DNA from: a bacterium
GTDB taxonomy: Bacteria > SZUA-182 > DTGQ01
Reading direction: 5' to 3'
Assembly (NCBI GenBank): GCA_040752695.1
Contig: JBFMGO010000129.1
Coordinates: forward strand, 1-15,398
DNA: 15,398 nt
The notes under the pieces are model-generated. The model saw only the letters and a list, made by a program, of their open reading frames with translations. It was not told where the DNA came from and did no database searches. Both the position numbers and the translations under genes were made by a program. Positions 1 to 15,398 of the stretch are shown here, one piece after another; within the stretch, counting starts at the first letter, position 1; each line of letters starts with the position of its first letter.

Positions 1-1512
1 AAAATAGACTTCCCCATAATCAAAATCAAGATAGGCCATGGACCAGAAAGCCAGTGACTGCCTGGCAAGGTCGAGATAATCCTTTCTGCCTGTCTGGCCA
101 TACAGAATCAGGTAGGCGAGAATGCACTGCTCCTGCTGCCACCAGGCTTTGCGGTTATGCCAGGTGAATTCCAGCGGCATCCCATTCTTTGGTTCCCGTT
201 CTACGACATCGAAGCAGCCGCCGCGGATCTGATCAAGCCCGTAGATCTTCATCGCATCGCCCAGTTTTATGGCCAGATCAAGATATTCCTTTTTCCCAAG
301 CAGATTATATACTCTACTCAAATTCCAGGCTATCTTAAGGTTGTGTCCCACGACAGCGCGGTTCTGCTGCCATTTATATGTCTTATCCGGTGTCCAGTCC
401 CGTAAAAAGCGTTCCTGAACATAAGGGATTTTCGGATCAGGGTCTGGAAATTTATCAACGATTAAGTCAGCGAGTTCTTCCTGCATCGCCTTGCATTGAT
501 CAAAGAGGACGCAGAATTCTTCATTGGTGATATTTTGGATGGTAAGCATGAGATTCAAAAGATAAGCTGGTGTGTGATCACCGATTGAATTCCAGTTTTT
601 CTTCGCGCAATTATCTCCCAGAGCCGGTACATCGGGTTCGAAATTTGCATAATCAAGATGTGAGTAATACCCTCCCAGGTGCTCGTCTTTATATCTTTTA
701 AAAAGATTGATTGTTCTTTTTATGTCGTCGAGTGTTTCCCAGTCGTTGGAAATCCGGTAAAAATTGGAAAGCCCGGCCAGGGCATAGATCTGCTCGTAGA
801 GAGGGATGGTATTTCTATCATCGCTAAACAGTGAGGGAAGTATTTTTTCTCCCTTACAGTAGGCATGTGCCCAAACCACAAAAGACCCGTTGTGGCTTTC
901 GAGTCTAAAGGTATCTCTCTGGTATTCCACTCCTTTTCTTGCTGCCCAATAATAGCGATCGTTTCCTGTCATAAGATACGCAGCGGACAACCCGGAAATC
1001 AGACGGGACAAAGTAGCGCACTCCTGTATGGGGTCCTTTTCTCTGGAGCCGATGTATGAAAGATTTGTCTGGTATGTGGAATAATCATAGGTACTGCCCG
1101 GACCGAAAAGATTTAAAAGCCACTGGTCTGCAAGGGCACCGATCTGAGTCAGCCAATAGTGAGGTTCTTCAAAAAGATACTTACCCTCTGCGTCATGGAA
1201 TAAGGTTACCTCCCGCGCATCAAAACGTGATTTGTCTTCATGAAGTTGCCGGATGCCATAAACTCCGACAAACAATCCTTTCTGAATGTAGCGGCTGAGT
1301 CTTCCTTCGGGACTGTCCACGTAATTCTGAGGTGCCGGGATTCTATCGCGATCGAGTTTGTCAAAATTTTTTATGAACTTGTAACTGGTAGCATCGCCAA
1401 CACAGATGTCAAAGACATCACCGCTTTGACAGACAACCTGAAAGCAGCGGCTCGGCGGATTAACGTCCTGCACAATACCCATTATTCCTTCACTGTGAGT
1501 ATAATATTTCAT
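1..1512 (-). CDS. Large AGE-superfamily (N-acylglucosamine 2-epimerase / cellobiose epimerase-like, (alpha/alpha)6 barrel) protein; 3' end runs off the window (at least 504 aa)
   Basis: Absent from the ORF track because no stop lies in the window. Manual translation from ATG at 1512 (GGGAGG SD at 1517-1522) is open to base 1: MKYYTHSEGIMGIVQDV...QECATLSRLISGLSAAYLMTG...PLYEQIYALAGL...KNWNSIGDHTPAYLLN...VQERF...WQQNRAVVGHNLKIAWNL...KAWWQQEQCILAYLILY...GEVYF. The helical pattern and the GH..W and WW motifs fit the AGE fold. Confidence 0.9.
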   Translation of the reverse strand, partial: MKYYTHSEGIMGIVQDVNPPSRCFQVVCQSGDVFDICVGDATSYKFIKNFDKLDRDRIPAPQNYVDSPEGRLSRYIQKGLFVGVYGIRQLHEDKSRFDAREVTLFHDAEGKYLFEEPHYWLTQIGALADQWLLNLFGPGSTYDYSTYQTNLSYIGSREKDPIQECATLSRLISGLSAAYLMTGNDRYYWAARKGVEYQRDTFRLESHNGSFVVWAHAYCKGEKILPSLFSDDRNTIPLYEQIYALAGLSNFYRISNDWETLDDIKRTINLFKRYKDEHLGGYYSHLDYANFEPDVPALGDNCAKKNWNSIGDHTPAYLLNLMLTIQNITNEEFCVLFDQCKAMQEELADLIVDKFPDPDPKIPYVQERFLRDWTPDKTYKWQQNRAVVGHNLKIAWNLSRVYNLLGKKEYLDLAIKLGDAMKIYGLDQIRGGCFDVVEREPKNGMPLEFTWHNRKAWWQQEQCILAYLILYGQTGRKDYLDLARQSLAFWSMAYLDFDYGEVYF

Positions 1513-1525
1513 TGTTCCTCCCTGG

Positions 1526-1555
1526 GAGAAATTACAGTCTGAGAAATTACAGCCT
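1526..1555. repeat. 15-bp tandem duplication spanning the PfpI stop codon
   Basis: GAGAAATTACAGTCT GAGAAATTACAGCCT. Confidence 0.85.
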
Positions 1556-2149
1556 GCTTTTTCTATCTCTCTCCTGCAATTGTCTAAAGAATTCCTTGAT
1601 AAAGGGGACTGAGTGGGAGCTCATCCTCCCGGTAACCAGATTTCCATCAACATGGACATCCTTATCCACATACCTGAAGCCTGCATTTTTTACATCATCG
1701 ATGATGTTATAGGCACAAGTTACCTCTTTTGCCTTTACTGCATCTTTTAGAGAACATAAGATCCACATGGCATGGCAAATGGTCCCCACAAGATGTCTAT
1801 CGGACCGCAGTATTTTCTCGACAAGTGCACGGGGCTCGGGACGTTCTAATACACCAGGCTGCTTTTCTTTTTGGAACCACCAGCGCAGACGGTCCGCCCA
1901 GTATCCACCTCCAAAGATAAACCCTGCAAAATCATAGATATTGACTTCATGGATGCTCATATCCACAACTAATCTGAAAATCGGCTCGTCGCCGGAAGGA
2001 ATGCTTTTTCTCTTTCCATTGTCCACTTCTTTGTCTGTGGTAATAAGAACAGGCTTAAATCCTGCATCTTTAATTTCCCTGATGATGGGAAAGTAGCTGA
2101 ATGAAACCCATTCATCTTCAACAAATACGCCAATTTGTTCTGTAGTCAT
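1547..2149 (-). CDS. DJ-1/PfpI family protein (class I glutamine amidotransferase-like), 200 aa
   Basis: Motifs FIFGGGYWADRLR, GTICHAMW (nucleophile-elbow Cys-His) and YVDKDVHVDGNLVTGR. The start overlaps the upstream gene by 32 bp. Confidence 0.9.
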   Translation of the reverse strand: MTTEQIGVFVEDEWVSFSYFPIIREIKDAGFKPVLITTDKEVDNGKRKSIPSGDEPIFRLVVDMSIHEVNIYDFAGFIFGGGYWADRLRWWFQKEKQPGVLERPEPRALVEKILRSDRHLVGTICHAMWILCSLKDAVKAKEVTCAYNIIDDVKNAGFRYVDKDVHVDGNLVTGRMSSHSVPFIKEFFRQLQERDRKSRL

Positions 2150-2966
2150 TATGCTCTCTTCCTTCCGATGTCAGGATTTTTACTATCATCTCACCACAAA
2201 GATAGGACGATGCTGTTGAGCGGCTGGTTAAAAAAGGCCAATCTAAAACAACGGATGTTCTTCTTCCCAGATTTCCATGGTAGCCGCCGTCAGGGCCGGT
2301 GGCATCACGCAGAATATATTCCAGAGGATAAGGAGGCGGGCCTATGTTAATGTCCGTGTTGAGAAAACCAGTCCCATCTTTATAATCGTATTCGAGCACA
2401 TGACCGGTAACATGTTTCCCCCAAAGAATGCTCTTCCGATCGTTCCAGTCCCGTGCAAAGGCAAGACAGGCCACACCATAGCATTCAGCCGCCACGAGCT
2501 TATCCAACTTCATAAAACCCAGAATAAGATCGTGGACCCTGCTATTGTTCACCATGTCAATTAAAGGGCCGCTTCCACCAACTAATAACAAACAATCATA
2601 GGACGCTAAATCCTTTTGTACTGCATAAAGGGCGTCATGGTAATCTTCGAGTTTCCTGAGATACAGAGGATCACATACATAGGGTCTTTCCGGCAGCCAG
2701 GAGGAAAGATTCAGTGGCTTCTCCAGTCGGTATGATTCATCAATCTCACGGCCTCGACGAGCATTTTCCTCAGTAGTGACCTGCCGTCCAAGGGGTGGAT
2801 CAATGTAATCGGCATTCAGGCTGGGAGGCAGCGCCCTTGGCCTTTTTCCTTTTGGGGTGGCAAAAGTTACGTCGAATCCGGCATTATCCAAATGATACAA
2901 GGGGCCTACTAATTCCTCAGCCCAATACCCCCATTCAGACAAAACAGTCAAAACTTTTTTATTCAT
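2118..2966 (-). CDS. DJ-1/PfpI (Hsp31/ThiJ-like) type 1 glutamine amidotransferase domain protein, 282 aa
   Basis: Motifs LSEWGYWAEELVGP, FATPKG, YDCLLLVGGSGP, VAAECYGVACL, GKHVTGH and FLTSRS. An AAGGAG SD lies just upstream of the ATG. Confidence 0.88.
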   Translation of the reverse strand: MNKKVLTVLSEWGYWAEELVGPLYHLDNAGFDVTFATPKGKRPRALPPSLNADYIDPPLGRQVTTEENARRGREIDESYRLEKPLNLSSWLPERPYVCDPLYLRKLEDYHDALYAVQKDLASYDCLLLVGGSGPLIDMVNNSRVHDLILGFMKLDKLVAAECYGVACLAFARDWNDRKSILWGKHVTGHVLEYDYKDGTGFLNTDINIGPPPYPLEYILRDATGPDGGYHGNLGRRTSVVLDWPFLTSRSTASSYLCGEMIVKILTSEGREHNDYRTNWRIC

Positions 2967-2981
2967 TTGAACACTCCTTTC

Positions 2982-3072
2982 TTATCTCAGGTTGTATCTC
3001 AGTCCTTGTCTCAGGTCTTATCTCAGTCCTTGTCTCAGGTTTTATCTCAGGCATTATCTCAGGTCTTATCTC
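2982..3072. repeat. 12-bp tandem repeat, about 7.6 copies
   Basis: ttatctcaggtt gtatctcagtcc ttgtctcaggtc ttatctcagtcc ttgtctcaggtt ttatctcaggca ttatctcaggtc ttatctc. Confidence 0.95.
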
Positions 3073-3085
3073 TTCTTTAGGTTAT

Positions 3086-4753
3086 TCACGAAAGAGAGTT
3101 ATCGAGAAATACGTCTACAAGACATGGTTTCCCCATGCGAAAAGCTTTATCCAGGACCGGGGCAAGTTCAGATGGATCTTCAACATGAAATCCGGCTACC
3201 CCCATACCTTCTGCCAATTTTTTAAAATTAAGACGTGGATGAACAAGATCCATATTATCCGGGAACGGACGTTCCGGAGGCTGGGGATTACCCCAGTAGC
3301 TAAGCAGGTTATATTTAAGTATTTTATAGCTGGCGTTGTTACAGATTATGAAAACTACAGGGATATCATAACGGGCTGCCGTATACAGAGCGTGAATGCC
3401 GAAACTTCCGCCACCGTCACCGACGATGGCCACAACAGGCCGGTCAGGGTGAGCTAATTTCAGTCCTATACCTCCTGGTATGCCCACTCCGAGGATGCCC
3501 TCCCTTACCTGAAAGAACTGACCAGCCCGACTAGGACGGATGTAACGAAGAAGCTGCTCCGAGCAGGTAATGGCCTCATCGAAAATGAGTGTTTCAGGGG
3601 TGATGAACCGGGAAAGTTCCCGCATGAGTCGAGCAGGCCTTATGGGTGTAAGGTCCATAGTGATATCGTCTTTGGCGATGGCCTCGTTTCGTTCATCAAG
3701 GGCCTTTTGATGAAACGTATCAAACCTCTTTTTTGCCTTTGCTCTGTCCTTTTCCGTCATTCTCTTTTCCAGTTCTTCACATAAGGCGGCAAGGCTTAAT
3801 TTCGGATCTGCCATAATGGCCAGATCTGCTACGAAATTCTTTCCAATTTCCCATGTATCCAAATCGATATGAATAATTTTTGCATTTTGTGCAAACACAT
3901 TTTCAGTGAGGGGAAAAACTTCCGGAAAAACATAACTCCCGCAGATGAATACCACATCGGCATCCTTGACTATCTCCCGGCTCGAGCTCCCAAACATATG
4001 CCCGGTCAGCCCCATGAACAGGGGGTACTCAAAACTGACATTCACCTCAGCCGAGTCAGCACCGTATATGGGACAACCCAGAATCTCTGCGAATTTTTCA
4101 GCTTCCTGCTTTGCGTCAGAAAAAGCCAGGCCGTCTCCCATGATGAAAATGGGATTTTCAGCGGACAAGAGAAGAGATATCGCCTCTTGTATGAACGCTT
4201 GATCGGGAGAAACACGTGTTGAAATTCTGGTTGCAGGTCTTATCTCGACATTTACCTCTTCATCGAGACAATCCATGGGAAAAGACAGATACACGGGACC
4301 GTAGGGCGGGGTTGTCGCAACCTTTACAGCGCGCCTGAGCATTCTGGCAACCTCAGAACCTCTGCGAATCTGGGTACACCATTTTGTTACCGGCCTGGCA
4401 AGTTCCTGCAGATTCGCAGCCATCTGTGCATCCATATTGTATATGTCAAGAGGTCCTTCTCCAGCTAATACTATTAAAGGAGCGCAGCCTCGCTTCGCCT
4501 GATACAACATGCCAATAGCGTTGCCGGTGCCTACTGAACAGTGTAGTTGCACAAATGCCGGCTTTCGAGCTGCCCGCGCATAGGCATCACCCATAGCAAT
4601 AGCCATTGTTTCATGAAGACAGAGAATATACTTGATATCGGAGAAATCAGATAGTGCATCATTAAAACTTTCCTCCGATGTGCCGGGATTACCAAATATA
4701 TAGGTTACTCCCTCAGCAATAAGCTGACGAATAAGTGCCTCTTTGGTAAACAT
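3086..4753 (-). CDS. Thiamine-diphosphate-dependent enzyme, benzoylformate decarboxylase-like, 555 aa
   Basis: IFGNPGTSEE, catalytic Glu in LHETMA, QLHCSVGTGNAIG (BFD-like NLH..GTGN), and the ThDP-binding motif VGDGG...ICNNASY. GAGAGGAG SD upstream. Confidence 0.92.
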   Translation of the reverse strand: MFTKEALIRQLIAEGVTYIFGNPGTSEESFNDALSDFSDIKYILCLHETMAIAMGDAYARAARKPAFVQLHCSVGTGNAIGMLYQAKRGCAPLIVLAGEGPLDIYNMDAQMAANLQELARPVTKWCTQIRRGSEVARMLRRAVKVATTPPYGPVYLSFPMDCLDEEVNVEIRPATRISTRVSPDQAFIQEAISLLLSAENPIFIMGDGLAFSDAKQEAEKFAEILGCPIYGADSAEVNVSFEYPLFMGLTGHMFGSSSREIVKDADVVFICGSYVFPEVFPLTENVFAQNAKIIHIDLDTWEIGKNFVADLAIMADPKLSLAALCEELEKRMTEKDRAKAKKRFDTFHQKALDERNEAIAKDDITMDLTPIRPARLMRELSRFITPETLIFDEAITCSEQLLRYIRPSRAGQFFQVREGILGVGIPGGIGLKLAHPDRPVVAIVGDGGGSFGIHALYTAARYDIPVVFIICNNASYKILKYNLLSYWGNPQPPERPFPDNMDLVHPRLNFKKLAEGMGVAGFHVEDPSELAPVLDKAFRMGKPCLVDVFLDNSLS

Positions 4754-4872
4754 CTGTGTTCTCCTCTCGGTAATAAAACAAATCTTTTAAAACATTATAA
4801 TTTAAAATATATTCATCATTAAAATGTATTCTTACATAAAATAATTTGAGATTACTCTTAGTTTGCCTTTAG

Positions 4873-4881
4873 TATATCGGC
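4873..4881 (-). promoter_or_regulatory. Putative sigma28 (FliA/SigD/WhiG-type) -10 element for the ThDP-DJ-1-AGE operon
   Basis: Minus strand reads GCCGATATA, preceded by TAAT with a 16-nt spacer. Consensus is TAAA-N15/16-GCCGATAW. Confidence 0.45.
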
Positions 4882-4998
4882 ATTTTTTACGAAAAAAATT
4901 ACTACTGATTCAAATATTTATATTCTGAATCATAAAAAAATGAAAGTTATTGGAATAATTTTTTTTCAATGATCCTGTCATAATAAAAGAAATTTTTT

Positions 4999-5007
4999 AC
5001 CGATATA
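4999..5007 (+). promoter_or_regulatory. Putative sigma28-type -10 element for the GH13 gene
   Basis: ACCGATATA about 55 nt upstream of the ATG. It shares CCGATATA with the divergent element, but the -35 match is poor. Confidence 0.4.
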
Positions 5008-5062
5008 TAACTTTAAATTTTATTAAAGTTAAAATTTAAATAATTCAAGGGAGGGCGAGTCC

Positions 5063-6940
5063 ATGGCTGTCGTAATTGAAAGGGATGCACCTCAGGAAGT
5101 TTCATCAGTAGACATTAAACCACGGGGAAGAATCTATCCAAGTCCTGCCACCTGGAGGGATCAAATTTTATACTTTCTTCTCCCTGATCGATTCAGTGAT
5201 GGGGGCGAAGGCCATCGGCCACTCTTTGACCGGACAAACCCGGATGTATTCAAGACCAGGGATAAACGGAGCTGGATGGAGGGAGGCAGGAGGTTTCAGG
5301 GTGGAACAATTACGGGGATTGAGAGTAAGCTGGATTATTTAAAGGGTCTTGGAGTAACTACCCTTTGGATCGGCCCGATCTGGCGCCAGCGTCCGGATTT
5401 GGAAACGTACCATGGTTACGGAATCCAGAACTTCCTTGACATCGACCCTCGGTTTGGAACCCGCCAGGATTTAAGGGATCTTGTCGATGCGGCTCATGAC
5501 CGGGATATGTACGTTATCCTGGATATCATCTACAATCACACAGGGAATAACTGGTTTTACAAAAGTAACGGATATCCGGTGGCGGATATTGATTATCGCT
5601 TTGAGCCTCCCTATCCTTTTGGCGGATGGCGCTCCAGGCAAGGAGAGTGCATCGATTCCATAAGCACTCTCGACGACGGGGTTTGGCCGAGAGAATTCCA
5701 GAACCGTGACTGGTATACCCGCGCAGGCAGGATCAATCACTGGGACCCACAGCCCTGGGAAGATCCGATGAATCCCAATAATGAATTCCGGCGCGGAGAT
5801 TTTTTTGATTTAAAAGACCTGGACTTAAGTGATTGGGATTCTGGTAAAAACAGGGAGATTCTGAACGCCATTTCCCGTGCCTACCAGTACTGGATCGCCC
5901 TGAGTGATTGCGATGGGTTCCGTATCGATACTCTTAAACATGTTCCTCTCGAAGCATCCCGAAAATTCTGCGGTGCGATACATGAATATGCAGAATCTAT
6001 CGGCAAGGAGAATTTTCTTCTCCTCGGAGAGGTGGCAGGTAGTGGTGAAATGGTCCATAATTATCTTGGCATTTTTGGCCAGAATATCGATGCTGCCTTA
6101 GATATTGGAGTGCCGCCCAACATTTTGGCAGCAATGGTCAAGGGCTTTGGGGACCCGGCTGGTTTTTTCAACCAGTTTAGGGGTGGCGGGCAGGATATTT
6201 TAGGCTCTCATCGTGAACTGGGGCGCTATCATGTATCGATTCTGGACGATCATGATATGGTGACCCGGAATGGAAAACACCGCTTTGCCGCCAATGCCCC
6301 TATCCCCGGCATTTATCAGCAGGTCGCTCATGCCGTAGGTGTGCAATTGACAACTTTGGGGATTCCGTGTATCTACTATGGCACTGAGCAGGCTTTCGAC
6401 GGGACACAGAATCGCCATGATCCGAGTGTTGACAGCGGCTTTGAGGACCGGTATATCCGCGAGTCGATGTTTGGAGGCACATTCGGGGCATTCGAAACGA
6501 GCGGCTGCCATTTCTTTAATCCGGATCACCCAACATATCTTCGCATTGCCGCCCTGTCCAGGGTTCGCGGGAGAAATGACCTGATTGGCCGGACGCTTCG
6601 GCGCGGGCGCCAGTACTTTCGGCAAACCTCGGTCCAGGGTCGTCCCTTTTCCTTTCCAGGGGGAGGTGAATTAGTTGCCTGGTCACGCATCCTGCTCAAT
6701 CAGGAGGTCATCATCGCCCTCAATACGAACGGGATACAAAGCCGGGGTGCTGACATTACCGTGGATTCATCATTGCACCCCGTAAACTCCGCGGTATCCG
6801 TTTTCTACCGGGGCGACTGGAGCGATGCCGAACTGAAAAACCCACCCACAGGCCGGACCATACCTGTTCAGTCAGCCCAAGATGGCCGGGCAAGCATCAG
6901 GATTGATCTTCCTCCTGCCGGTATGGCTGTCCTGGGCTAG
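5063..6940 (+). CDS. GH13 alpha-amylase family glycoside hydrolase, 625 aa, no signal peptide
   Basis: YFLLPDRF, FQGGTITGIESKLDYLKGLGVTTLWIGP, YHGYG, region I DIIYNH, region II DGFRIDTLKH (nucleophile D), region III LLGEV (acid/base E), region IV ILDDHD, and GIPCIYYGTEQ. GGGAGG SD upstream. Confidence 0.95.
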   Translation: MAVVIERDAPQEVSSVDIKPRGRIYPSPATWRDQILYFLLPDRFSDGGEGHRPLFDRTNPDVFKTRDKRSWMEGGRRFQGGTITGIESKLDYLKGLGVTTLWIGPIWRQRPDLETYHGYGIQNFLDIDPRFGTRQDLRDLVDAAHDRDMYVILDIIYNHTGNNWFYKSNGYPVADIDYRFEPPYPFGGWRSRQGECIDSISTLDDGVWPREFQNRDWYTRAGRINHWDPQPWEDPMNPNNEFRRGDFFDLKDLDLSDWDSGKNREILNAISRAYQYWIALSDCDGFRIDTLKHVPLEASRKFCGAIHEYAESIGKENFLLLGEVAGSGEMVHNYLGIFGQNIDAALDIGVPPNILAAMVKGFGDPAGFFNQFRGGGQDILGSHRELGRYHVSILDDHDMVTRNGKHRFAANAPIPGIYQQVAHAVGVQLTTLGIPCIYYGTEQAFDGTQNRHDPSVDSGFEDRYIRESMFGGTFGAFETSGCHFFNPDHPTYLRIAALSRVRGRNDLIGRTLRRGRQYFRQTSVQGRPFSFPGGGELVAWSRILLNQEVIIALNTNGIQSRGADITVDSSLHPVNSAVSVFYRGDWSDAELKNPPTGRTIPVQSAQDGRASIRIDLPPAGMAVLG

Positions 6941-7137: not shown

Positions 7138-7191
7138 TTACCTGAATGTGCAGGTTACCTGAATGTGCAGGTTACCTGAATGTACAGGTTA
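7138..7191. repeat. 17-bp tandem repeat x3 with an internally palindromic unit
   Basis: TTACCTGAATGTGCAGG x2, then TTACCTGAATGTACAGG, then TTA. Confidence 0.95.
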
Positions 7192-7340: not shown

Positions 7341-7435
7341 CTGTCCTATCATAATAATCCCTGCCTATCAAATAATCCCTGCCCATCATAATAACTTCTG
7401 CCTGTCGTACTAATCTCTGCCTATCATAATAATCC
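7341..7435. repeat. 19-bp tandem repeat x5 (units 18-20 bp)
   Basis: Consensus CTGCCTATCATAATAATCC; units start at 7341, 7361, 7379, 7398 and 7417. Confidence 0.93.
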
Positions 7436-7450
7436 CAGGGATACTTGCAG

Positions 7451-7637: not shown

Positions 7638-7868
7638 GCCATGCTGCGGGAAAGGAGATTCTCGATGTGAATGACTGATTAGTTCTTGGAATTTTCAAGA
7701 ACGAAAACATAACAAACATTTTGTACCCCCCAATGCGTAATTTTTTCGATGTTTTGGCTTTCTCAAAAAGGAGGCACAACAAGACCGCTTAAACTCAATC
7801 ATAGTTTCTCACTCAATAGGTTAGATCGAGGGTGCGAAATGTGGGCTATAAGGAAAGGAGGTGAAAAA

Positions 7869-8501
7869 ATGAAAAAGGGCTTAGCTTTTCTCTTAGCAGC
7901 ATTTGGAATCTTCCTGTCAGTAGGTATTCAAACTGCAGCAGCAGTTTCATTTCAATTCATTGGATTGTATCAGCTAACTGATGCTGACGGAGATCATTTT
8001 TCAGAATCTCTCATCATTTATGACAGTAGTACTATTATGGAAAAGAATCCGGCAGATGATGTCTTAAAATATGTAAAATTTACTCCTTTGACCCTGGATA
8101 AGAATGAGTACACCCCTGGAGACAGGTACTCCCTGGTAGAAGTTACCGTTCAAGATGGTTTTCAGGCTTTCGATAATGCTAATAATCAGCTATTTACTGC
8201 AGCGACTCACTTGAAACCTTTGATAAAGACTGGCGATAATACCATGGCTCTCATGTCCATGATGGACATGAGCGGGGTTGGAGGATCAAAAATTGCAGAT
8301 GCCTTCATAGATAATGGCCAAGGGAAATTAGCTGTTACATTAATGTTCTCTGGAGGATTCAATCCCGAATCGGGACAGCAAATCATGGGCGTATATACCG
8401 GGACTGCAAGTCTTCCCAGTATTCCTGAACCCTCAACATTGCTCCTGTTCGGATTGGGGTTCCTCAGCTTTTTAGGCTTATGTGTTCAGAGAAAACAGTA
8501 G
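7869..8501 (+). CDS. PEP-CTERM sorting domain protein, 210 aa
   Basis: Start revised to ATG 7869 (AAGGAGGTG SD). Signal peptide MKKGLAFLLAAFGIFLSVGIQTAAA; C-terminus IPEPSTLLLFGLGFLSFLGLCVQRKQ (PEP, TM helix, basic tail). Confidence 0.93.
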   Translation: MKKGLAFLLAAFGIFLSVGIQTAAAVSFQFIGLYQLTDADGDHFSESLIIYDSSTIMEKNPADDVLKYVKFTPLTLDKNEYTPGDRYSLVEVTVQDGFQAFDNANNQLFTAATHLKPLIKTGDNTMALMSMMDMSGVGGSKIADAFIDNGQGKLAVTLMFSGGFNPESGQQIMGVYTGTASLPSIPEPSTLLLFGLGFLSFLGLCVQRKQ

Positions 8502-8511
8502 TAAGTAAGAA

Positions 8512-8547
8512 GGAAAAAGGAGAGGGGTTTAATCCTCTCCTTTCTCC
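8512..8547 (+). terminator. Stem-loop after the first PEP-CTERM gene (terminator or mRNA stabiliser)
   Basis: GGAAAAAGGAGAGG pairs with CCTCTCCTTTCTCC (13 of 14 pairs). There is no clean U-tract after the stem. Confidence 0.55.
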
Positions 8548-8655
8548 ATACTCATGCTTTTACATGGATATATTAATTATAATAGAAATAAAAATAAAAA
8601 AATAACAGATAAGGGAAGAAAAGCTGTTTACCCTAAAATGAAAGGAGGTGATAGA

Positions 8656-9336
8656 ATGAAAAAGAAAGGCGTAGTATTAGTGGGGCTCATGATTTGCTTT
8701 TGCCTCATGAGTGTAAGGAGTGGATCGGCAACGTCGACTTCGGCCTCTTTTTTCCTCATGTCTAACGAGTTATACATTATCAATAACACGATAGGCAGTT
8801 CTTTCTCGGAAACCCTGCATCTTGGAGATGCTTACATCGGATTTCCGGATCCGTCCGATAATGTACTTTCAACAATCCGGTTTTCTGATATGATGTTATC
8901 TGCTGCCGACCATACATCAGGTTCCAATATTTTCCCATTTTCCCCTCAGGAATACCTTTTGACAGCGTATGACAATTCCGGACAGACGCTCTTTACCGGG
9001 CAATATGGCGTTGATTACCTTAAAATTAACATCGATGCATCTACAGGAGCCCTCGTATCAGAGATGAAATTCAACTTGACAGACATAAGACGGGGCAATG
9101 CTTCTGGCTCTCCCATTGCTGATATATTTATCAACGCGGATAAAGGGACAATGAATGTGACTCTTCAGTTTCATGGGAGTATTAATCCAATTGCTGACAT
9201 CGAGGATGGTAAAATGGTTAGGGGTGTTTATATGGGTATGGGAGGTAGTGAGGTTCCAGAACCATCCACACTTATCCTCTTGATAGTTGGCCTTTTAGGT
9301 TTTGGGGGATCTGCCGTCATGCGGAAGAACGGTTAA
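8656..9336 (+). CDS. PEP-CTERM sorting domain protein, 226 aa, paralogue of the upstream gene
   Basis: Start revised to ATG 8656 (AAAGGAGGTG SD). Signal peptide MKKKGVVLVGLMICFCLMSVRSGSA; C-terminus VPEPSTLILLIVGLLGFGGSAVMRKNG. Confidence 0.93.
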   Translation: MKKKGVVLVGLMICFCLMSVRSGSATSTSASFFLMSNELYIINNTIGSSFSETLHLGDAYIGFPDPSDNVLSTIRFSDMMLSAADHTSGSNIFPFSPQEYLLTAYDNSGQTLFTGQYGVDYLKINIDASTGALVSEMKFNLTDIRRGNASGSPIADIFINADKGTMNVTLQFHGSINPIADIEDGKMVRGVYMGMGGSEVPEPSTLILLIVGLLGFGGSAVMRKNG

Positions 9337-9376
9337 TCGCCCAAGACTGTTTCATTTACAAAGCTGGTTTCTGTGA

Positions 9377-9397
9377 GAAAAGAGGGGAGTGCCCCTC
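9377..9397 (-). terminator. Hairpin, possible intrinsic terminator for the minus-strand prs transcript
   Basis: GAGGGG-agtg-CCCCTC, preceded by GAAAA on + (a short U-tract on -). Confidence 0.35.
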
Positions 9398-9463
9398 GCA
9401 AGGATAGTTTATTTTCGAATAAGTCCAGAGGTTTTGGCATTCAGTCAAAACGGCCTTGATCCT

Positions 9464-9489
9464 GTAATTTCCAGGAAAGCGGGAATCCA
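9464..9489. repeat. Degenerate REP-like palindromic element (ATTCCC-N8-GGGAAT, RS3/RPE-like)
   Basis: GTAATTTCCAGGAAAGCGGGAATCCA matches GTCATTCCCGCGAAAGCGGGAATCCA (element recalled from memory) at 22 of 26 positions. Confidence 0.5.
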
Positions 9490-9609
9490 AAAAAAGAGTT
9501 GGTTATCCCCCAAAATGGGTTCCCTTCAAGAGCCGCTTATGCAGGCAGATTGAGGCTCGGGATTATGGTGAATATCAAAATAGGTGGATATATCCGAAAA
9601 TACCCTTGT

Positions 9610-9628
9610 GAGGGGTGCCCCTTTTTTT
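9610..9628 (+). terminator. Possible intrinsic terminator
   Basis: GAGGG-gtgc-CCCT short stem followed by a T-run. Confidence 0.4.
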
Positions 9629-9641
9629 ATTTGGCGATAAT

Positions 9642-9679
9642 TGTGGATTCCAAGTGCAACTGTGGATCCCAAGTGCAAT
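9642..9679. repeat. 19-bp tandem duplication
   Basis: TGTGGATTCCAAGTGCAAC / TGTGGATCCCAAGTGCAAT. Confidence 0.88.
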
Positions 9680-9709
9680 AAAGGGAAGATACTGGTTTTT
9701 AGCTTTCTT

Positions 9710-11059
9710 TTATTTTTCGATTTTATATTTTTTAATCAGGTCATAAACGGTAGTCCGGGCAATCCCGAGACTCTCCGAGACCTTGGAGAGGTTACCGTTA
9801 AACTTTTTTAGGTAATTCGACAATAATTCCTTCTCTACTTTTGCCGTAGCTTCTTTCAGGGTTATCATTTCCCCGCAATTTTTTCCATAGAGAATCCCTA
9901 AATCTTTTGGCTTTATGTTCTTATCGATAGAGAGCGCCACAGCTCTCTTTATCCTGTTTTCTAATTCTCTTACATTCCCCGGCCATTGATAAGCTTCGAT
10001 AGCCTCCAGCGATTCTACAGTAAGCCGTTTAAAGGGAAGGCCTTTCTCGTTGATATATTTTTCCATAAGCCATTGAGCCAAAAGAACGATGTCCTCCCCT
10101 CTCTCCCGCAGAGGCGGTAACTCGATGACTACCCCGCTTAACCGGAAATAAATGTCTTCACGAAAGGTGCCTTTTTCGACTTCGTGCTCCAGATTTTTGT
10201 TGGTTGCGGCAATAACCCTCACATCTACCGGTATTAATTGGTTCCCACCGATCCTTTGTATCTTCTTTTCCTGTAAAAACCTCAGCAGCTTGACTTGCAG
10301 ATAAACAGGTAATTCTGCAATTTCATCAAAAAATAACGTTCCTTCATGAGCACTTTCAATCTTGCCAATTCTTTTCGAGTGGGCATCGGTAAAAGCTCCT
10401 TTCTCATGACCGAATAATTCACTTTCCAGCAGGTTTTTCGGAATGGCACCAGAGTCAATGGGAACGAATGGCTTATCAGCTCTATAACTGCACTTATGAA
10501 TGGCTTGAGCCGCTAATTCCTTGCCTGTTCCGCTCTCTCCGCCTATCAGGATACTCAGATCAGTTTGCGCGACTTTTCTTATGAGGTTCATTATTTTTCT
10601 CATCTTTGCGCACTTGCAAAAAATGCCCCAAAACTCATGCCCTTCTTCCGGCTCGGATTGCGGCTGTATACTTTCGAGCTCCAGGTTCCTGATATATAAG
10701 GCCCGGTCCAATATGACTTTTAATTCCTGAAGGTCTATCGGTTTAATATAATAGTCATGGGCTCCGATATGGAGGGCATTCACAGCGTTTTCCTTTTCGC
10801 TTTGACCCGTTATCATGATCACTTTGACATAAGGATCAATTGCCAGAATTCTTTTTAAAACTTCAAAGCCATTGGGAGTATCCTCAGGTGAGGATAAGGT
10901 TACGTCGAGAGTTACAATATCGGGTTTAATCTTCCTGAATTGCTTTATGGCCTCGTTCCCCTCATAAGCCGTAAATACTTCATACCTGTCATGTAAGCCC
11001 CATTTGAGCTGCTTACAGATAATCTCTTCATCATCTACGATAAGTAGTTTAGGATGCAT
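9710..11059 (-). CDS. prsR: sigma54-dependent response regulator (REC-AAA+-Fis HTH), PEP-CTERM-box regulator PrsR-like, 449 aa
   Basis: REC motifs LLIVDDE, VTLDV, ITGQ and YIKP. Walker A GESGTGKE, ELFGHEKGAFTDA, LFFDEI, WPGNVRELEN and HTH LGIARTTVYDLIKKY. Adjacent to a PrsK-like kinase and PEP-CTERM genes. Confidence 0.88.
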   Translation of the reverse strand: MHPKLLIVDDEEIICKQLKWGLHDRYEVFTAYEGNEAIKQFRKIKPDIVTLDVTLSSPEDTPNGFEVLKRILAIDPYVKVIMITGQSEKENAVNALHIGAHDYYIKPIDLQELKVILDRALYIRNLELESIQPQSEPEEGHEFWGIFCKCAKMRKIMNLIRKVAQTDLSILIGGESGTGKELAAQAIHKCSYRADKPFVPIDSGAIPKNLLESELFGHEKGAFTDAHSKRIGKIESAHEGTLFFDEIAELPVYLQVKLLRFLQEKKIQRIGGNQLIPVDVRVIAATNKNLEHEVEKGTFREDIYFRLSGVVIELPPLRERGEDIVLLAQWLMEKYINEKGLPFKRLTVESLEAIEAYQWPGNVRELENRIKRAVALSIDKNIKPKDLGILYGKNCGEMITLKEATAKVEKELLSNYLKKFNGNLSKVSESLGIARTTVYDLIKKYKIEK

Positions 11060-11185
11060 CGTTTTTCCCTGTTCCCTTCCTATCTTGCGTAAATCTCAGT
11101 ACATATCGCGCTCAATGCGCGACCCGTGTTGTAGCATACATAATTGAAAACCGCTCTATAATGCCTGCTCGAATGTATTTCTCCG

Positions 11186-13519
11186 TTATTCGACTAAAAC
11201 AGGCTCCTGGGTCAGGCTCTCAGTCTCCACGGGCAAAAATATCCTGAACGTAGTGCCCTTTCCTTCCTCACTTGTCACCTCTATTTTCCCTCCATGGGCA
11301 GCTACAAACAGCTTACTCTGGTAGAGCCCGATGCCCAATCCCCCTTTTTTGCTTGTCTGGAAAGGTTTAAAAAGCTTTTGACTAAGGAATTCCTTTGACA
11401 TTCCCGATCCATTATCTTCAACTTCAATAATGATGATAGTGCCACCCTTAAATGTGGCCGAGACAGAAATCCGCCTATTATCTTTTCTCTCTTTCATCGC
11501 TTCCTGAGCATTGATGATCAGGTTATTCACTACACTCTGGATTTTTTCCCGATCTACCTTTACCTTCGGTAAACGGCCATATACTTCAATAAACCGGATC
11601 TCATGCGAACCCGCTTGAGCATTCTCCACGGCAGCATGGAGTAATTCAGTGAGATCGGTAGTAACCTTGTTCAAGGAAGTTCCCTTTGGTAAACAGGAAA
11701 CCTTACCGATAAGCTTATTCATGTTAAGAATGACATTTGAGATGGTTTTAATGGAATCCTTTTGAAACTCCACGTCATGAAAATTCTGAGTGGCATTTTG
11801 AACGAGAAGGGAGAGCATGGAGATCCCATTTTTAAGATCATGCAGGATAAAGGACGAAACCTTATCCATGAACTCTATTTCTTTCAACGTAATAAGTCGT
11901 TCTGACAGCTTGATATTTATGATTTGACTCGATACTTGAAGACAATAGGCTTTGAGAATCTGGTAATTTTCCTGGTTAAAAGCTGCTCCGGTTATTTCCT
12001 TCCCGAGGGTAATAAAACCGATAAGATCTTCTTTTACGATGAGGGGGCTTATGGATGAAACTTTGCATACTGAAAAAAGCTCCCTGTTCATGTCCACGAG
12101 TTCTTTTTCCCGTTTACTTTTGCCAAGAGAGATTATGTCAAAGGGCTCCCCCCTGGCTTCCAGGTATATCATGAGGGGATTATCTCTATCTACTGATATC
12201 TCGGCCTGCTCGGCTCGCAGTGGCTTCAGTGACGAGGATACATAGAATTTCTTATCATCTTCGTTATAAAGAAAAATTACCACTGAATCAGTATAAAAAA
12301 CTTCGGAGAGAAACTTTGAAAAGTTCGCTAACATTTCGATGAGATTTATTGGAGAGCAGATCCTGTTGGTGAGTTCAATCCACTCTTCCCGGTAGTCGTG
12401 CCTGTAGCTGTAAAAATATTCTCCGATAAATGCCTTCAGCAGCCTCCTGTTCTTTTCAAGCAAGATGAAGGTTCCCGTAACCATAAGGAAAGCAAGGACC
12501 AGGACCGGACTGAAAACCTGGTTGAAACTGAATTTCAGGATTCGTGCCAATTCCCCGACCAAGCCGATGAGGACAAGGTAACTGCTGATGACTATCCCTG
12601 TAAATGACCCATAAACTACGCACTGTGGTGAACCAATGGTAATTCTGGTCAGTTGATGTCTGAAAATGCTGAAGGCGAGAAGTCCTAAGCATATGAAAGT
12701 AATAGTTGAGCCAATAGGCAGATAGGTCAGGTTAATATGTGGGAAAATGATTAACTTACAGGTAATGTAAATGTAGAAAAGGAAAGCAGAGAACATTGCC
12801 ATAATGCTGTACTTAATTTGCCATTTTTTGATTCCTTTTGCATTCCTGAATAGTGTCTCCAGGTTCACAAGGATAAAAGTAAAAGTAAATATCAAAAAAA
12901 ACAGAAAAAATTTACCTATTTTCCCTAAATAAAAAATATTTTGAGGATTGTTGCCTTGAAAGGAGAAAGAAACCGGATCAGTTGCCAGATAGATAAAGAG
13001 GTCAGAAGGGATAAAGATAAAAAAGATGATAGATGAAACGAATATTACAGATAAAACCGGCTTCCATTTCTTGATCCATTTCTTCGCTTCTTCAGGGCTA
13101 CTCCTTGCGAAAGTAAGGCTTAAAAGAGACCATGAGCCTGGAGCAAGGCAATATCCCACCAATCCGATTCGCCCCCAGAATAATAATCTCGATGCATTGG
13201 AGGAATTCTGGAGAATAAAATTGGCTAACTCTGCTATACTGATGCTGCATAGGGCGAAAAAAAAGATTCTGTTAATAGTATGCCGGTGATTTTGGTAAAG
13301 AAGGACCATCCCGAAGCATAAAGCAAATACGAAGTTAACCAGTGATGGAATCGAGTGATTATCTATGCTTGACTTAATAAAAGGTGTATTAATTACCTGT
13401 CCACTTAAGTACGGCACCACGACTGCCGCACTCCAAAAGTGGTTGGCATCCACAGCAGGTAATAACCGTCCGGTTATGTGACATGTGGCGTACTGAGTCA
13501 TATTTTTTAACATGTCCAT
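11186..13519 (-). CDS. prsK: PEP-CTERM system histidine kinase PrsK-like (multi-TM, GAF, HisKA/HATPase); exact start uncertain
   Basis: Many hydrophobic TM segments, YRHDYREEW, a GAF-like region, H-box FILHDLKN, N-box NLIINAQEA, VEDNGSGM, LFKPFQTSKKGGLGIGLYQ and AHGGKIEV. Confidence 0.88.
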   Translation of the reverse strand: MDMLKNMTQYATCHITGRLLPAVDANHFWSAAVVVPYLSGQVINTPFIKSSIDNHSIPSLVNFVFALCFGMVLLYQNHRHTINRIFFFALCSISIAELANFILQNSSNASRLLFWGRIGLVGYCLAPGSWSLLSLTFARSSPEEAKKWIKKWKPVLSVIFVSSIIFFIFIPSDLFIYLATDPVSFSFQGNNPQNIFYLGKIGKFFLFFLIFTFTFILVNLETLFRNAKGIKKWQIKYSIMAMFSAFLFYIYITCKLIIFPHINLTYLPIGSTITFICLGLLAFSIFRHQLTRITIGSPQCVVYGSFTGIVISSYLVLIGLVGELARILKFSFNQVFSPVLVLAFLMVTGTFILLEKNRRLLKAFIGEYFYSYRHDYREEWIELTNRICSPINLIEMLANFSKFLSEVFYTDSVVIFLYNEDDKKFYVSSSLKPLRAEQAEISVDRDNPLMIYLEARGEPFDIISLGKSKREKELVDMNRELFSVCKVSSISPLIVKEDLIGFITLGKEITGAAFNQENYQILKAYCLQVSSQIINIKLSERLITLKEIEFMDKVSSFILHDLKNGISMLSLLVQNATQNFHDVEFQKDSIKTISNVILNMNKLIGKVSCLPKGTSLNKVTTDLTELLHAAVENAQAGSHEIRFIEVYGRLPKVKVDREKIQSVVNNLIINAQEAMKERKDNRRISVSATFKGGTIIIIEVEDNGSGMSKEFLSQKLFKPFQTSKKGGLGIGLYQSKLFVAAHGGKIEVTSEEGKGTTFRIFLPVETESLTQEPVLVE

Positions 13520-13544
13520 ATTTGGGATACTATCAAGGGGCCAA

Positions 13545-13568
13545 GAGAGTTTGGACGAGAGTTTGGAT
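13545..13568. repeat. 12-bp tandem duplication
   Basis: GAGAGTTTGGAC / GAGAGTTTGGAT. Confidence 0.75.
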
Positions 13569-13600
13569 TCATGAATAAAGGACGAAGGAGCCTGGTCTAA

Positions 13601-13714
13601 AAAATATCTCGATAAAATTCCCGGAAAAGTATCTCGATAAAATTCTCCAAAATACCTCGATAAAACTCCCCAAAAATTTCACAAAATATCTTGATAAAAC
13701 TCCCAAAAATTTCC
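13601..13714. repeat. 21-bp core repeated x4 with irregular spacing
   Basis: AAAATATCTCGATAAAATTCC-like cores start at 13601, 13626, 13649 and 13683. The last two units share an extra CAAAAATTTC. Confidence 0.92.
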
Positions 13715-13725
13715 AATTGATTTGG

Positions 13726-15398
13726 TTACTGTAATTTTTTCCATAAAGCTCTTGCCTCACGTATTTCCGGAAAATTCTCAGTTATCTTTAAAGCGGTGTC
13801 CAGTGATTCCAGAGCGTCTTTTTTCTGATTGTTTTCATAGTAGGCGAGTGCTAAGTGATAGTGGATACTTGGATTTTTTTTATTCAGGTTGGCCGCCTTT
13901 TCAAATTGTCTTATTGCTTCTTTTTTATCGCCGCCCTTATAAAAAGCCCAGCCTAACGTATCTACAATATTTCCATTATCTGGATTTAAGTCTACGGCTT
14001 TTTTTGCATACTGAACGGCTCGATCCAAGTCAATACCCTTATCAGCAAGGATCCAGGCTAATTGGTTGAGAGCTACAAGTGCGTGAGGGTCCGCTTTGAT
14101 GGCCTTTTGATAGTTATCAATAGCCATCTTATAATTGTTGGCTTTTTCAAAAAGTAAGGCGATCTTTATACGTTTATCCACATCGTCTTCATAGTGCTGC
14201 AAGTAACTATCATATTCATGAATGGCCTTTCGGAGATAATCGTTTTTCCCTTCATTATTATCATTTACTTTAGTTCCTTTATCTAGTGAATAGTAAATAT
14301 CCCCAAGGGCGAGATGAACGGACGCCAGTCTTGGATCTGCTTTCAATGTTTTTTCGAAATACTCCCTGGCTTTCGCAGTATCGGTGTTTGCAAAGAATTG
14401 ACCCATCAGGTAACTCACCAGAGGGTTATCGGGGGATTTTTCTAAAAGACGGCTTTCTTCTTCCCGTACTCTGCTCATCCAGCCCTGTTTCATATAGGTT
14501 GCCATGAGAGGTAAATGAGAACCGATAAATTGGGGATCAGCCTGGTAGTAATGGGCAATATCTATCTTTTTATTCATCAGTTCTGGAGCAAAGATATTGC
14601 ACTTGACATACATTTCACTTGCTTCCCTGTATTTCCCCTGGCAGGCAAAAATATTTGCTTTAACTAAATAAAGAAATTTGTTTGAATCATTGATTCTTAG
14701 TGCCTGGTCAACAGAGGCCAAGGCTTTTTGGTAATCCATTTTGAGATTTTGAAGAATAGCTAAACTGCAATAAAGATTTGTATCTTCAGGATTTTTCCCC
14801 AACGATGATTCGAAAGCCGCCAAAGCTTCCTTGTGTTTCCCCATGACCAGGTAGATCAATCCAAGGATATTCCCTCCTGTTCCCGCCTCCTGATTATGGT
14901 CAAATGCCTTGTCATATGCAGCCAGAGCTTCTGAAAATTTCTCCTGTTTTACATAAAGGTCAGCCAGCAGTAGATTCAAAGATGGATTGGAAGGTTGAGA
15001 TTTTGTCGAATTCTCGATAATAGAAATAGCTTCATCGGGTTTTCCCATTTTTTCATAAATGCGGCTCAGCATTATCAGTTCCTTGACAGATTGCTTGTTC
15101 AATTCACTGGCTTTCTCAAACATGGAAATAGCTTCTTTGGTTTTACCTTGTTGGATGTCGATCAGTCCAATTTCATAGTATAATTCGGGGTTCGAGGGAT
15201 CAAGAGTCGAGGCTTTTTGTAAATAGGATACAGCGGTAGAAAAATCTTTCTTTACTGTGCTGATAAAGGCAAGCCTCTGGTATGAGGAAATAAGGTTTGG
15301 ATCAATCTTGAGGGATACGTCAAAGGTGGCCACGGCATCTTCAATTTTATTCTGAGTAAGGAGTATCTCTCCCAGGAATGCATAAACAAAAGGGTTCT
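13726..15398 (-). CDS. Multi-TPR protein (PrsT-like, PEP-CTERM/EPS-associated); 5' end lies outside the window
   Basis: The frame stays open upstream of the track's GTG start to the window edge (NPFVYAFLGEILLTQNKIEDAV). Continuous TPRs; C-terminal ALNQLAWIL...IVDTLGWAFY...IHYHLALAY...FPEIREARAL is typical of this TPR class. Confidence 0.85.
   Translation of the reverse strand, partial: NPFVYAFLGEILLTQNKIEDAVATFDVSLKIDPNLISSYQRLAFISTVKKDFSTAVSYLQKASTLDPSNPELYYEIGLIDIQQGKTKEAISMFEKASELNKQSVKELIMLSRIYEKMGKPDEAISIIENSTKSQPSNPSLNLLLADLYVKQEKFSEALAAYDKAFDHNQEAGTGGNILGLIYLVMGKHKEALAAFESSLGKNPEDTNLYCSLAILQNLKMDYQKALASVDQALRINDSNKFLYLVKANIFACQGKYREASEMYVKCNIFAPELMNKKIDIAHYYQADPQFIGSHLPLMATYMKQGWMSRVREEESRLLEKSPDNPLVSYLMGQFFANTDTAKAREYFEKTLKADPRLASVHLALGDIYYSLDKGTKVNDNNEGKNDYLRKAIHEYDSYLQHYEDDVDKRIKIALLFEKANNYKMAIDNYQKAIKADPHALVALNQLAWILADKGIDLDRAVQYAKKAVDLNPDNGNIVDTLGWAFYKGGDKKEAIRQFEKAANLNKKNPSIHYHLALAYYENNQKKDALESLDTALKITENFPEIREARALWKKLQ

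Follow-up and report, generated by a model that had tools for sequence, protein, structure and literature searches.

What is the role of the genes grouped at one end of the bacterial contig JBFMGO010000129.1? This contig of 15,398 nucleotides (nt), which in full is the stretch of DNA analysed here (hereafter the window; contig C129 of genome G000), carries within positions 1 to 6,940 four closely spaced genes on the minus strand, for an AGE-fold enzyme, two DJ-1 proteins (DJ-1b and DJ-1a) and a thiamine diphosphate (ThDP)-dependent enzyme, which diverge from a GH13 gene on the plus strand. A first-pass annotation of the DNA had proposed an alpha-glucan/sugar-carbonyl pathway. The answer reached here is that the four genes belong to a conserved, widespread gene system, which is almost certainly real, and that the operon likely turns unphosphorylated alpha-glucan sugar into some small product of the carbonyl or acid type. 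What was observed directly are the gene content, the gene order, the join between two contigs, the conservation across phyla, the folds and the residue patterns.

All five open reading frames (ORFs) were found at the positions and on the strands first assigned to them, each of the five proteins scored above the cut-off of its Pfam family, and all five stayed below the cut-offs of the NCBIfam models for named enzymes. The first gene of the operon (3086..4753, minus strand) encodes a ThDP-dependent enzyme of 555 residues, of the benzoylformate decarboxylase (BFD)-like subfamily, with three TPP domains. It is followed on the same strand by DJ-1a (2118..2966; 282 residues, Hsp31-like (ThiJ_like); PF17124 69.3 bits, E 4.8e-19) and DJ-1b (1547..2149; 200 residues, PfpI/YhbO-like; PF01965 67.1 bits, E 2.1e-18), the ORFs of which overlap by 32 nt, and by the AGE-fold (alpha/alpha)6 enzyme (1..1512; PF07221 41.4 bits), which is open at the contig end with residues 1-504 of about 631. 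The divergent gene (5063..6940, plus strand) encodes a cytoplasmic GH13 protein of 625 residues (PF00128 153.5 bits, E 1.4e-44).

The suggestion of further genes past the left edge proved right. A genome search with full-length relatives located the C-terminal part of the AGE-fold protein at the end of contig C56, where the last 108 AGE codons are directly followed by a CBM48-GH13 gene, which is frameshifted, and by seven further ORFs, i.e., those for three SnoaL_2 proteins, an MBL-SnoaL fusion, a VOC protein and two small proteins without a Pfam match that are similar in kind to the SnoaL proteins. The metagenome contig L032 matches both C129 (89-90% at the nt level) and C56 (85-91%) continuously, with a gap of 55 nt between the two contigs, and has the same gene order and the same divergent GH13 gene. 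Because L032 aligns to both contigs in this way, C129 and C56 hold one operon, which comprises 12 genes: ThDP, DJ-1a, DJ-1b, AGE, CBM48-GH13 and seven more.

How general is this arrangement? The first-pass annotation had named co-conservation of the families across phyla as the sign of a system, and this was found in at least six named phyla. Loci were collected as best hits together with a cyanobacterial sample, and are not a random draw; 13 were dropped (duplicates, loci of the same genome or loci without an AGE gene), leaving 120, of which 58 have at least 4 kb on both sides, and dereplication at 70% reduced these to 27. Among the 27, DJ-1b is present in 27, a GlgX- or CBM48-type GH13 in 25, ThDP in 20, DJ-1a in 19 and all five families in 16, accompanied by VOC (11 loci), EthD (10), GMC (9), SnoaL (9) and STAS plus kinase (9); before dereplication, the counts over 58 loci are 54 for DJ-1b, 55 for GH13, 24 for ThDP, 23 for DJ-1a and 18 for all five. 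Complete sets of the five families stand on named records of Actinomycetota, Deinococcota, Pseudomonadota, Bacteroidota and Cyanobacteriota, and on a metagenome-assembled genome of Thermodesulfobacteriota. That these families recur side by side on named records from six phyla puts their clustering far outside what chance would give. DJ-1a adjoins the ThDP gene in all 27 loci in which both were scored as separate ORFs, and several genes are fused: AGE with STAS in 18 loci, DJ-1b with DJ-1a in 8 rows (7 distinct loci) and AGE with DJ-1b in 2, the last fusion being found in L050, L057, P0044 and P0092. AGE and DJ-1b are the core of the system, and DJ-1a with the ThDP gene is an optional module.

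With 4555 of the 8000 scored candidate proteins, the family is a large one, and it reaches many phyla. Its distribution is patchy: of 60 relatives, 3 gave strong matches, two genomes of the same genus (96-97% complete) gave no such match, and the AGE gene is present in 20 of 201 genomes of the cyanobacterial sample and in 5 of 301 of a sample from another phylum. A midpoint-rooted tree of 62 AGE proteins has two main clades, that of the window, mostly with a CBM48-GH13 and no STAS, and one that resembles the icfG cluster of Synechocystis, mostly with GlgX and STAS (exceptions: L035 and L029). Plasmid-borne clusters (L025, L029, L028, L027) carry glucan-synthesis genes of their own: GlgE, GlgB, TreS, maltokinase, glycogen synthase and a nucleotidyltransferase. 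In L003 the cluster is followed (15309-20140) by genes for an amylase with a CBM20 domain and for a protein of adenylation-carrier-reductase type, with AMP-binding, PP-binding and NAD_binding_4 domains.

The icfG operon has been named as such since the 1990s. It corresponds to slr1852-slr1862 of Synechocystis PCC 6803, which includes Slr1855 (by annotation an N-acetylglucosamine 2-epimerase), Slr1856, a GlgX and IcfG (PMC8670252, available in part). Its kinase, phosphatase and STAS proteins have been characterised, with carbon phenotypes described for mutants (PMC12329169, likewise); in the parts of the literature found, this regulatory half alone is characterised. The kinship of the window's genes with this cluster rests on gene order, annotation and a cloning primer for slr1857 published in PMC4911114 (consulted in part), which encodes MERIDI, the N-terminus of the GlgX clade of the cluster; the available parts of PMC3726282, PMC5714215 and PMC3276265 contribute no more than data on expression, on NtcA binding and on a single-nucleotide polymorphism. 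The earlier claim that no characterised pathway has this gene set is supported in that none was found in the searches made; the relationship to icfG had been missed. No paper giving a reaction for the enzymes of the icfG cluster was found in a search that left most subscription journals and supplements outside its scope.

Which reaction might the AGE-fold protein catalyse? The protein has an N-terminal OB fold (about residues 1-110) that resembles SSB, a barrel (about 120-550) and a C-terminal beta domain encoded on C56. In its GHNLK motif (His390-x-x-Lys393; 334..345, minus strand) the catalytic His is kept and the Glu of the family is replaced by an invariant Lys. Both residues are present in 235 of 235 full-length relatives, and the alignment with GHAIE (8bry) and GHDIE (3vw5) places the Lys at the Glu position of solved relatives. 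The acid/base histidines, mapped by motif without structural superposition, are H394 and H535 (L001 numbering), again in 235 of 235, with the equivalent of H535 encoded on C56. The third His, the Tyr and the Asn that bind the C2-OH in the Cellobiose 2-epimerase/YihS type are also kept, the His at Asn+5 rather than Asn+4. These residues (Tyr242, Asn312, His317) are invariant, whereas N-acylglucosamine 2-epimerases have Phe, Ala and Ile there; in the alignment of the 235 relatives, this pocket for the N-acetyl group is not present. The position of the stacking Trp is Ser or Ala, with no Trp at the position of RmCE Trp385 as judged by motif spacing. The whole catalytic set is invariant across relatives of 40-100% identity, and the score with the NCBIfam AGE model NF052547 is 22.9 bits vs a cut-off of 600. 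From these residue patterns, the label "GlcNAc 2-epimerase" is very likely wrong; what appears to be new is the combination of three histidines of the cellobiose-epimerase type with an invariant Lys and an N-terminal OB fold, without an N-acetyl pocket. One hit of the searches (H20, NC_011738.1:313307-313852) corresponds to AGE residues 8-176 only, i.e., the OB-fold part, and adjoins an IS630 transposase.

The two DJ-1 proteins differ in what they keep. DJ-1b keeps its nucleophile Cys125, followed by His126, with both residues in 73 of 73 relatives, and scores 63.3 bits vs a cut-off of 139 with the NCBIfam PfpI model. DJ-1a has E18, C162 and Y163 in 32 of 32 relatives, so that the Glu and Cys pair of the glyoxalase III type is kept, with a Tyr after the Cys where Hsp31 has His; the HchA model gives 33.5 bits vs a cut-off of 365. 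The ThDP enzyme had been called a BFD-like decarboxylase, a label that is weakened: BFD is its best NCBIfam model (NF005485, 313.8 bits), which stays under the cut-off of 493, and the His281 position is lost. For BFD we take Ser26, His70 and His281 to be the active-site residues in the usual numbering. The window protein keeps the cofactor motif GDG..NN, Glu48 and His71, has Thr at the Ser26 position, and has PEVFP in place of the His281 region, with Val at the position of that His. A second ThDP enzyme, 39% identical, is encoded apart from any cluster gene at L015:3900-5747 (G000 C119).

Does the substrate come from an alpha-glucan, and by way of which GH13? The proposed tie of the gene set to alpha-glucan is supported, and the cluster is probably linked to it. 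Because homologues of GlgE, TreS, maltokinase and GlgB stand together on contig C59 of G000, alpha-glucan is plausibly present in this genome. The divergent GH13 at 5063..6940 had been taken as the feeding enzyme, and as entry enzyme of a five-gene pathway it has some points in its favour: L032 has it at the matching position (69% identity), its catalytic Asp/Glu/Asp are intact (GFRID, GEVAG, LDDHD), it has no signal peptide, and it could compensate for the frameshifted GH13 on C56. However, with a threshold of 40% identity, AGE has such a homologue beside it in 1 of 120 loci, namely in L032, a close relative, where its 69% identity falls below the 92-94% of the operon genes. Among the 201 genomes of the cyanobacterial sample, 20 have AGE, 18 have a GH13 of the divergent type and 2 have both (1.8 expected by chance); in the second sample of 301 the counts are 5, 13 and 1, the last on separate contigs, so that the overlap is at chance level in both. 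No homologue was found at 1e-40 in the 60 relatives, which include three with the AGE gene, and around a homologue on a plasmid, the surrounding 12 kb are free of genes of the cluster. As a general rule this entry role is largely refuted, and the five-gene reading is quite improbable; the divergent GH13 is at most an accessory neighbour. The conserved GH13 partner is the different gene downstream of AGE on C56, of the CBM48 TreZ/GlgB-like type, with 24% identity to the GlgX of the cluster; both cluster types keep the catalytic motifs.

These parts can be arranged into a route. The operon's own GH13 (CBM48 here, GlgX2 in the icfG clade) would release or remodel a specific malto-oligosaccharide or glucose. 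The AGE-fold enzyme would open the ring and form an enediol or ketose by means of its three histidines; the invariant Lys beside C2 may then trap this intermediate as a Schiff base, with elimination of a neighbouring OH or O-glucan, the product being a deoxy-osone (a dicarbonyl) and not an epimer. A DJ-1 cysteine could convert this dicarbonyl into a hydroxy-acid or thioester, for which DJ-1a is the better candidate here, because DJ-1b is without the general-base Glu. The ThDP enzyme might decarboxylate or ligate the 2-oxo product, and the SnoaL, VOC and MBL proteins (GMC and EthD elsewhere) would cyclise or complete it. We propose tentatively, as a serious possibility suggested by the sequences, that an unphosphorylated glucan sugar undergoes elimination through a Schiff base to give a dicarbonyl, which the DJ-1 and ThDP enzymes then process. 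Whether the AGE-fold protein is an ordinary isomerase or carries out a new reaction, a cleavage of or elimination from sugar, turns on one invariant lysine; were the latter true, there would be in bacteria a second way of using stored glucose that needs no kinase.

Several observations weigh against this route. The invariant Lys may be only half of a swapped salt bridge, as His535+3 is an invariant Glu; cellobiose epimerases have Arg at the matching position. The glyoxalase label given to DJ-1b is weakened: the Cys nucleophile is there, and the position of Glu18, which is Glu in 69 of 73 relatives, is Ser in the window protein and its four nearest relatives, Glu18 being described as essential for glyoxalase activity (PMC13333263, in the part available). 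ThDP and DJ-1a are not obligatory members, because 7 of the 27 loci lack the former and 8 the latter within the stretch fetched, and the accessory genes vary widely between loci. The alpha-glucan feed is unproven, since GlgX2 (Slr1857) has, according to the accessible part of 10.1101/2022.11.21.517384, no debranching activity and no mutant phenotype. This copy of the operon itself may be decaying. Its CBM48-GH13 (714 + 108 residues; L014:17199-19675, about 32325-34801 of C56) is one base out of frame vs L032 and vs two related read sets, as a pseudogene or by assembly error, and at AGE residue 173 (window 994-996) it has Ser in place of the Tyr found in 231 of 235 relatives.

Other readings have to be weighed against the elimination. 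The AGE-fold protein could be a plain aldose-ketose isomerase or 2-epimerase acting on glucose or maltodextrin ends, with DJ-1, VOC, GMC and reductase as a co-regulated carbonyl-stress set; we consider this somewhat unlikely, as the departures of the protein are invariant (Lys for Glu, Ser/Ala at the position of the stacking Trp) and come with two extra domains, and a generic detoxification kit is hard to fit to the fixed adjacency of DJ-1a and ThDP or to the many SnoaL-type genes. The same Lys would also suit a retro-aldol reaction, in which the Schiff base splits a hexose (C2+C4 or C3+C3), as in the AprG transaldolase, and ThDP joins or DJ-1 rearranges the fragments; this appears unlikely. 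That the AGE-fold protein is primarily a sensor, which binds sugar and signals via STAS proteins or its OB domain with catalysis as secondary, has in its favour the AGE-STAS fusions, the SSB-like OB fold and the control of carbon metabolism by icfG regulators (PMC12329169, in the part available). Yet the invariance of the entire catalytic set, the lack of an adjoining STAS gene in the window's clade and the common occurrence of OB folds, which show no function, make it highly improbable. Queries for the switch proteins of the cluster type gave no match in the genome at E 1e-8, and neither C129 nor the continuation on C56 contains the partner-switch genes (two STAS, RsbW-like kinase, PP2C IcfG).

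The remaining features of the two contigs can be described briefly. Each of the five starts in the window has a purine-rich sequence resembling a Shine-Dalgarno site, and a hydrophobic N-terminal segment is lacking in all five proteins (maximum Kyte-Doolittle 11-mer in the first 40 residues 0.39-1.39), which confirms the earlier view of the GH13 as lacking a signal peptide. The AT-rich region between the divergent genes (4754..5062), with a dip in GC, is the presumed site of both promoters; a sigma-70 scan of it gave 2 sites vs 2.8 expected, and lends the promoters no support. Short intergenic tandem repeats occur at 2980-3072, 7138-7191, 7345-7436 and 13601-13716, several in gaps between genes, with units of 12, 17, 19 and 23/34 nt. 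Positions 7749-15398 hold a standard exosortase-A-type regulatory locus, unconnected to the operon: two PEP-CTERM proteins, PrsR (547 bits) and PrsK (374 bits), both over cut-off, and a 5'-open TPR protein resembling PrsT. On C56, after the VOC gene and on the same strand (L014:9146-13125), there are genes for a 723-residue STAND-like NTPase and a 603-residue protein with TrkA_N and RyR domains, also found past the cluster end in the DNA match of L032; the other strand (L014:1-9097) has a polysaccharide/capsule-type gene run, by inspection flippase-like, acyltransferase-like and nitroreductase-like. Within the cluster of L032 there is an insertion of two genes for Lcl_C + SnoaL fusions (12361-14128), which the matching stretch of C56 does not have.

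How does the system compare with known ones? With the AGE superfamily (PF07221) the window protein shares the (alpha/alpha)6 barrel and a Pfam score over cut-off. It is about 630 residues long, has 13-18% identity to the group of cellobiose 2-epimerase, mannose isomerase and YihS, and differs from this group by the added OB-fold and C-terminal beta domains and by the Lys for Glu at His+3. The fold and the two acid/base histidines are shared with N-acylglucosamine 2-epimerase, whereas the N-acetyl pocket residues differ. AprG of apramycin biosynthesis (PDB 9lfi) likewise has an (alpha/alpha)6 barrel and uses a free sugar as substrate, with reported Schiff-base chemistry. At the level of pathways, the anhydrofructose pathway of fungi and red algae is a kinase-free conversion of glycogen or starch into dicarbonyl-type small molecules, with a GH31 glucan lyase and an aldos-2-ulose dehydratase as its enzymes; members of these two families were not among the recurring neighbours examined here. 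For three decades the icfG operon of a model cyanobacterium has been associated with the regulation of carbon, with its enzymes having no assigned reaction in the accessible parts of the literature found. More guardedly, it is possible that the cluster encodes a widespread, unrecognised and phosphorylation-free pathway from alpha-glucan to a small molecule, started by a new kind of AGE-fold enzyme, in which an epimerase active site with an acquired Schiff-base Lys has turned into that of a sugar eliminase or aldolase. Such a pathway would match the anhydrofructose pathway on the bacterial side and supply the enzymatic half that icfG has so far lacked.

The closest comparison is with the icfG cluster. 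Like it, the operon has an AGE-like gene beside a GH13 and a DJ-1 gene; in Synechocystis an AGE-annotated gene (Slr1855) is accompanied by a GH13 (Slr1857) and a stress-protein gene (slr1854), and among the loci fetched L129 shows the order hypothetical-CMD-DJ-1-AGE-STAS-GlgX-STAS-PP2C-kinase. Unlike it, the window's AGE belongs to the other clade (about 40% identity), the GH13 is of the CBM48 TreZ/GlgB-like type and not a GlgX2-type debranching homologue, and DJ-1a, ThDP, SnoaL, MBL and VOC are added. The present copy is a switch-free, ThDP-containing variant of the icfG-type cluster of Synechocystis.

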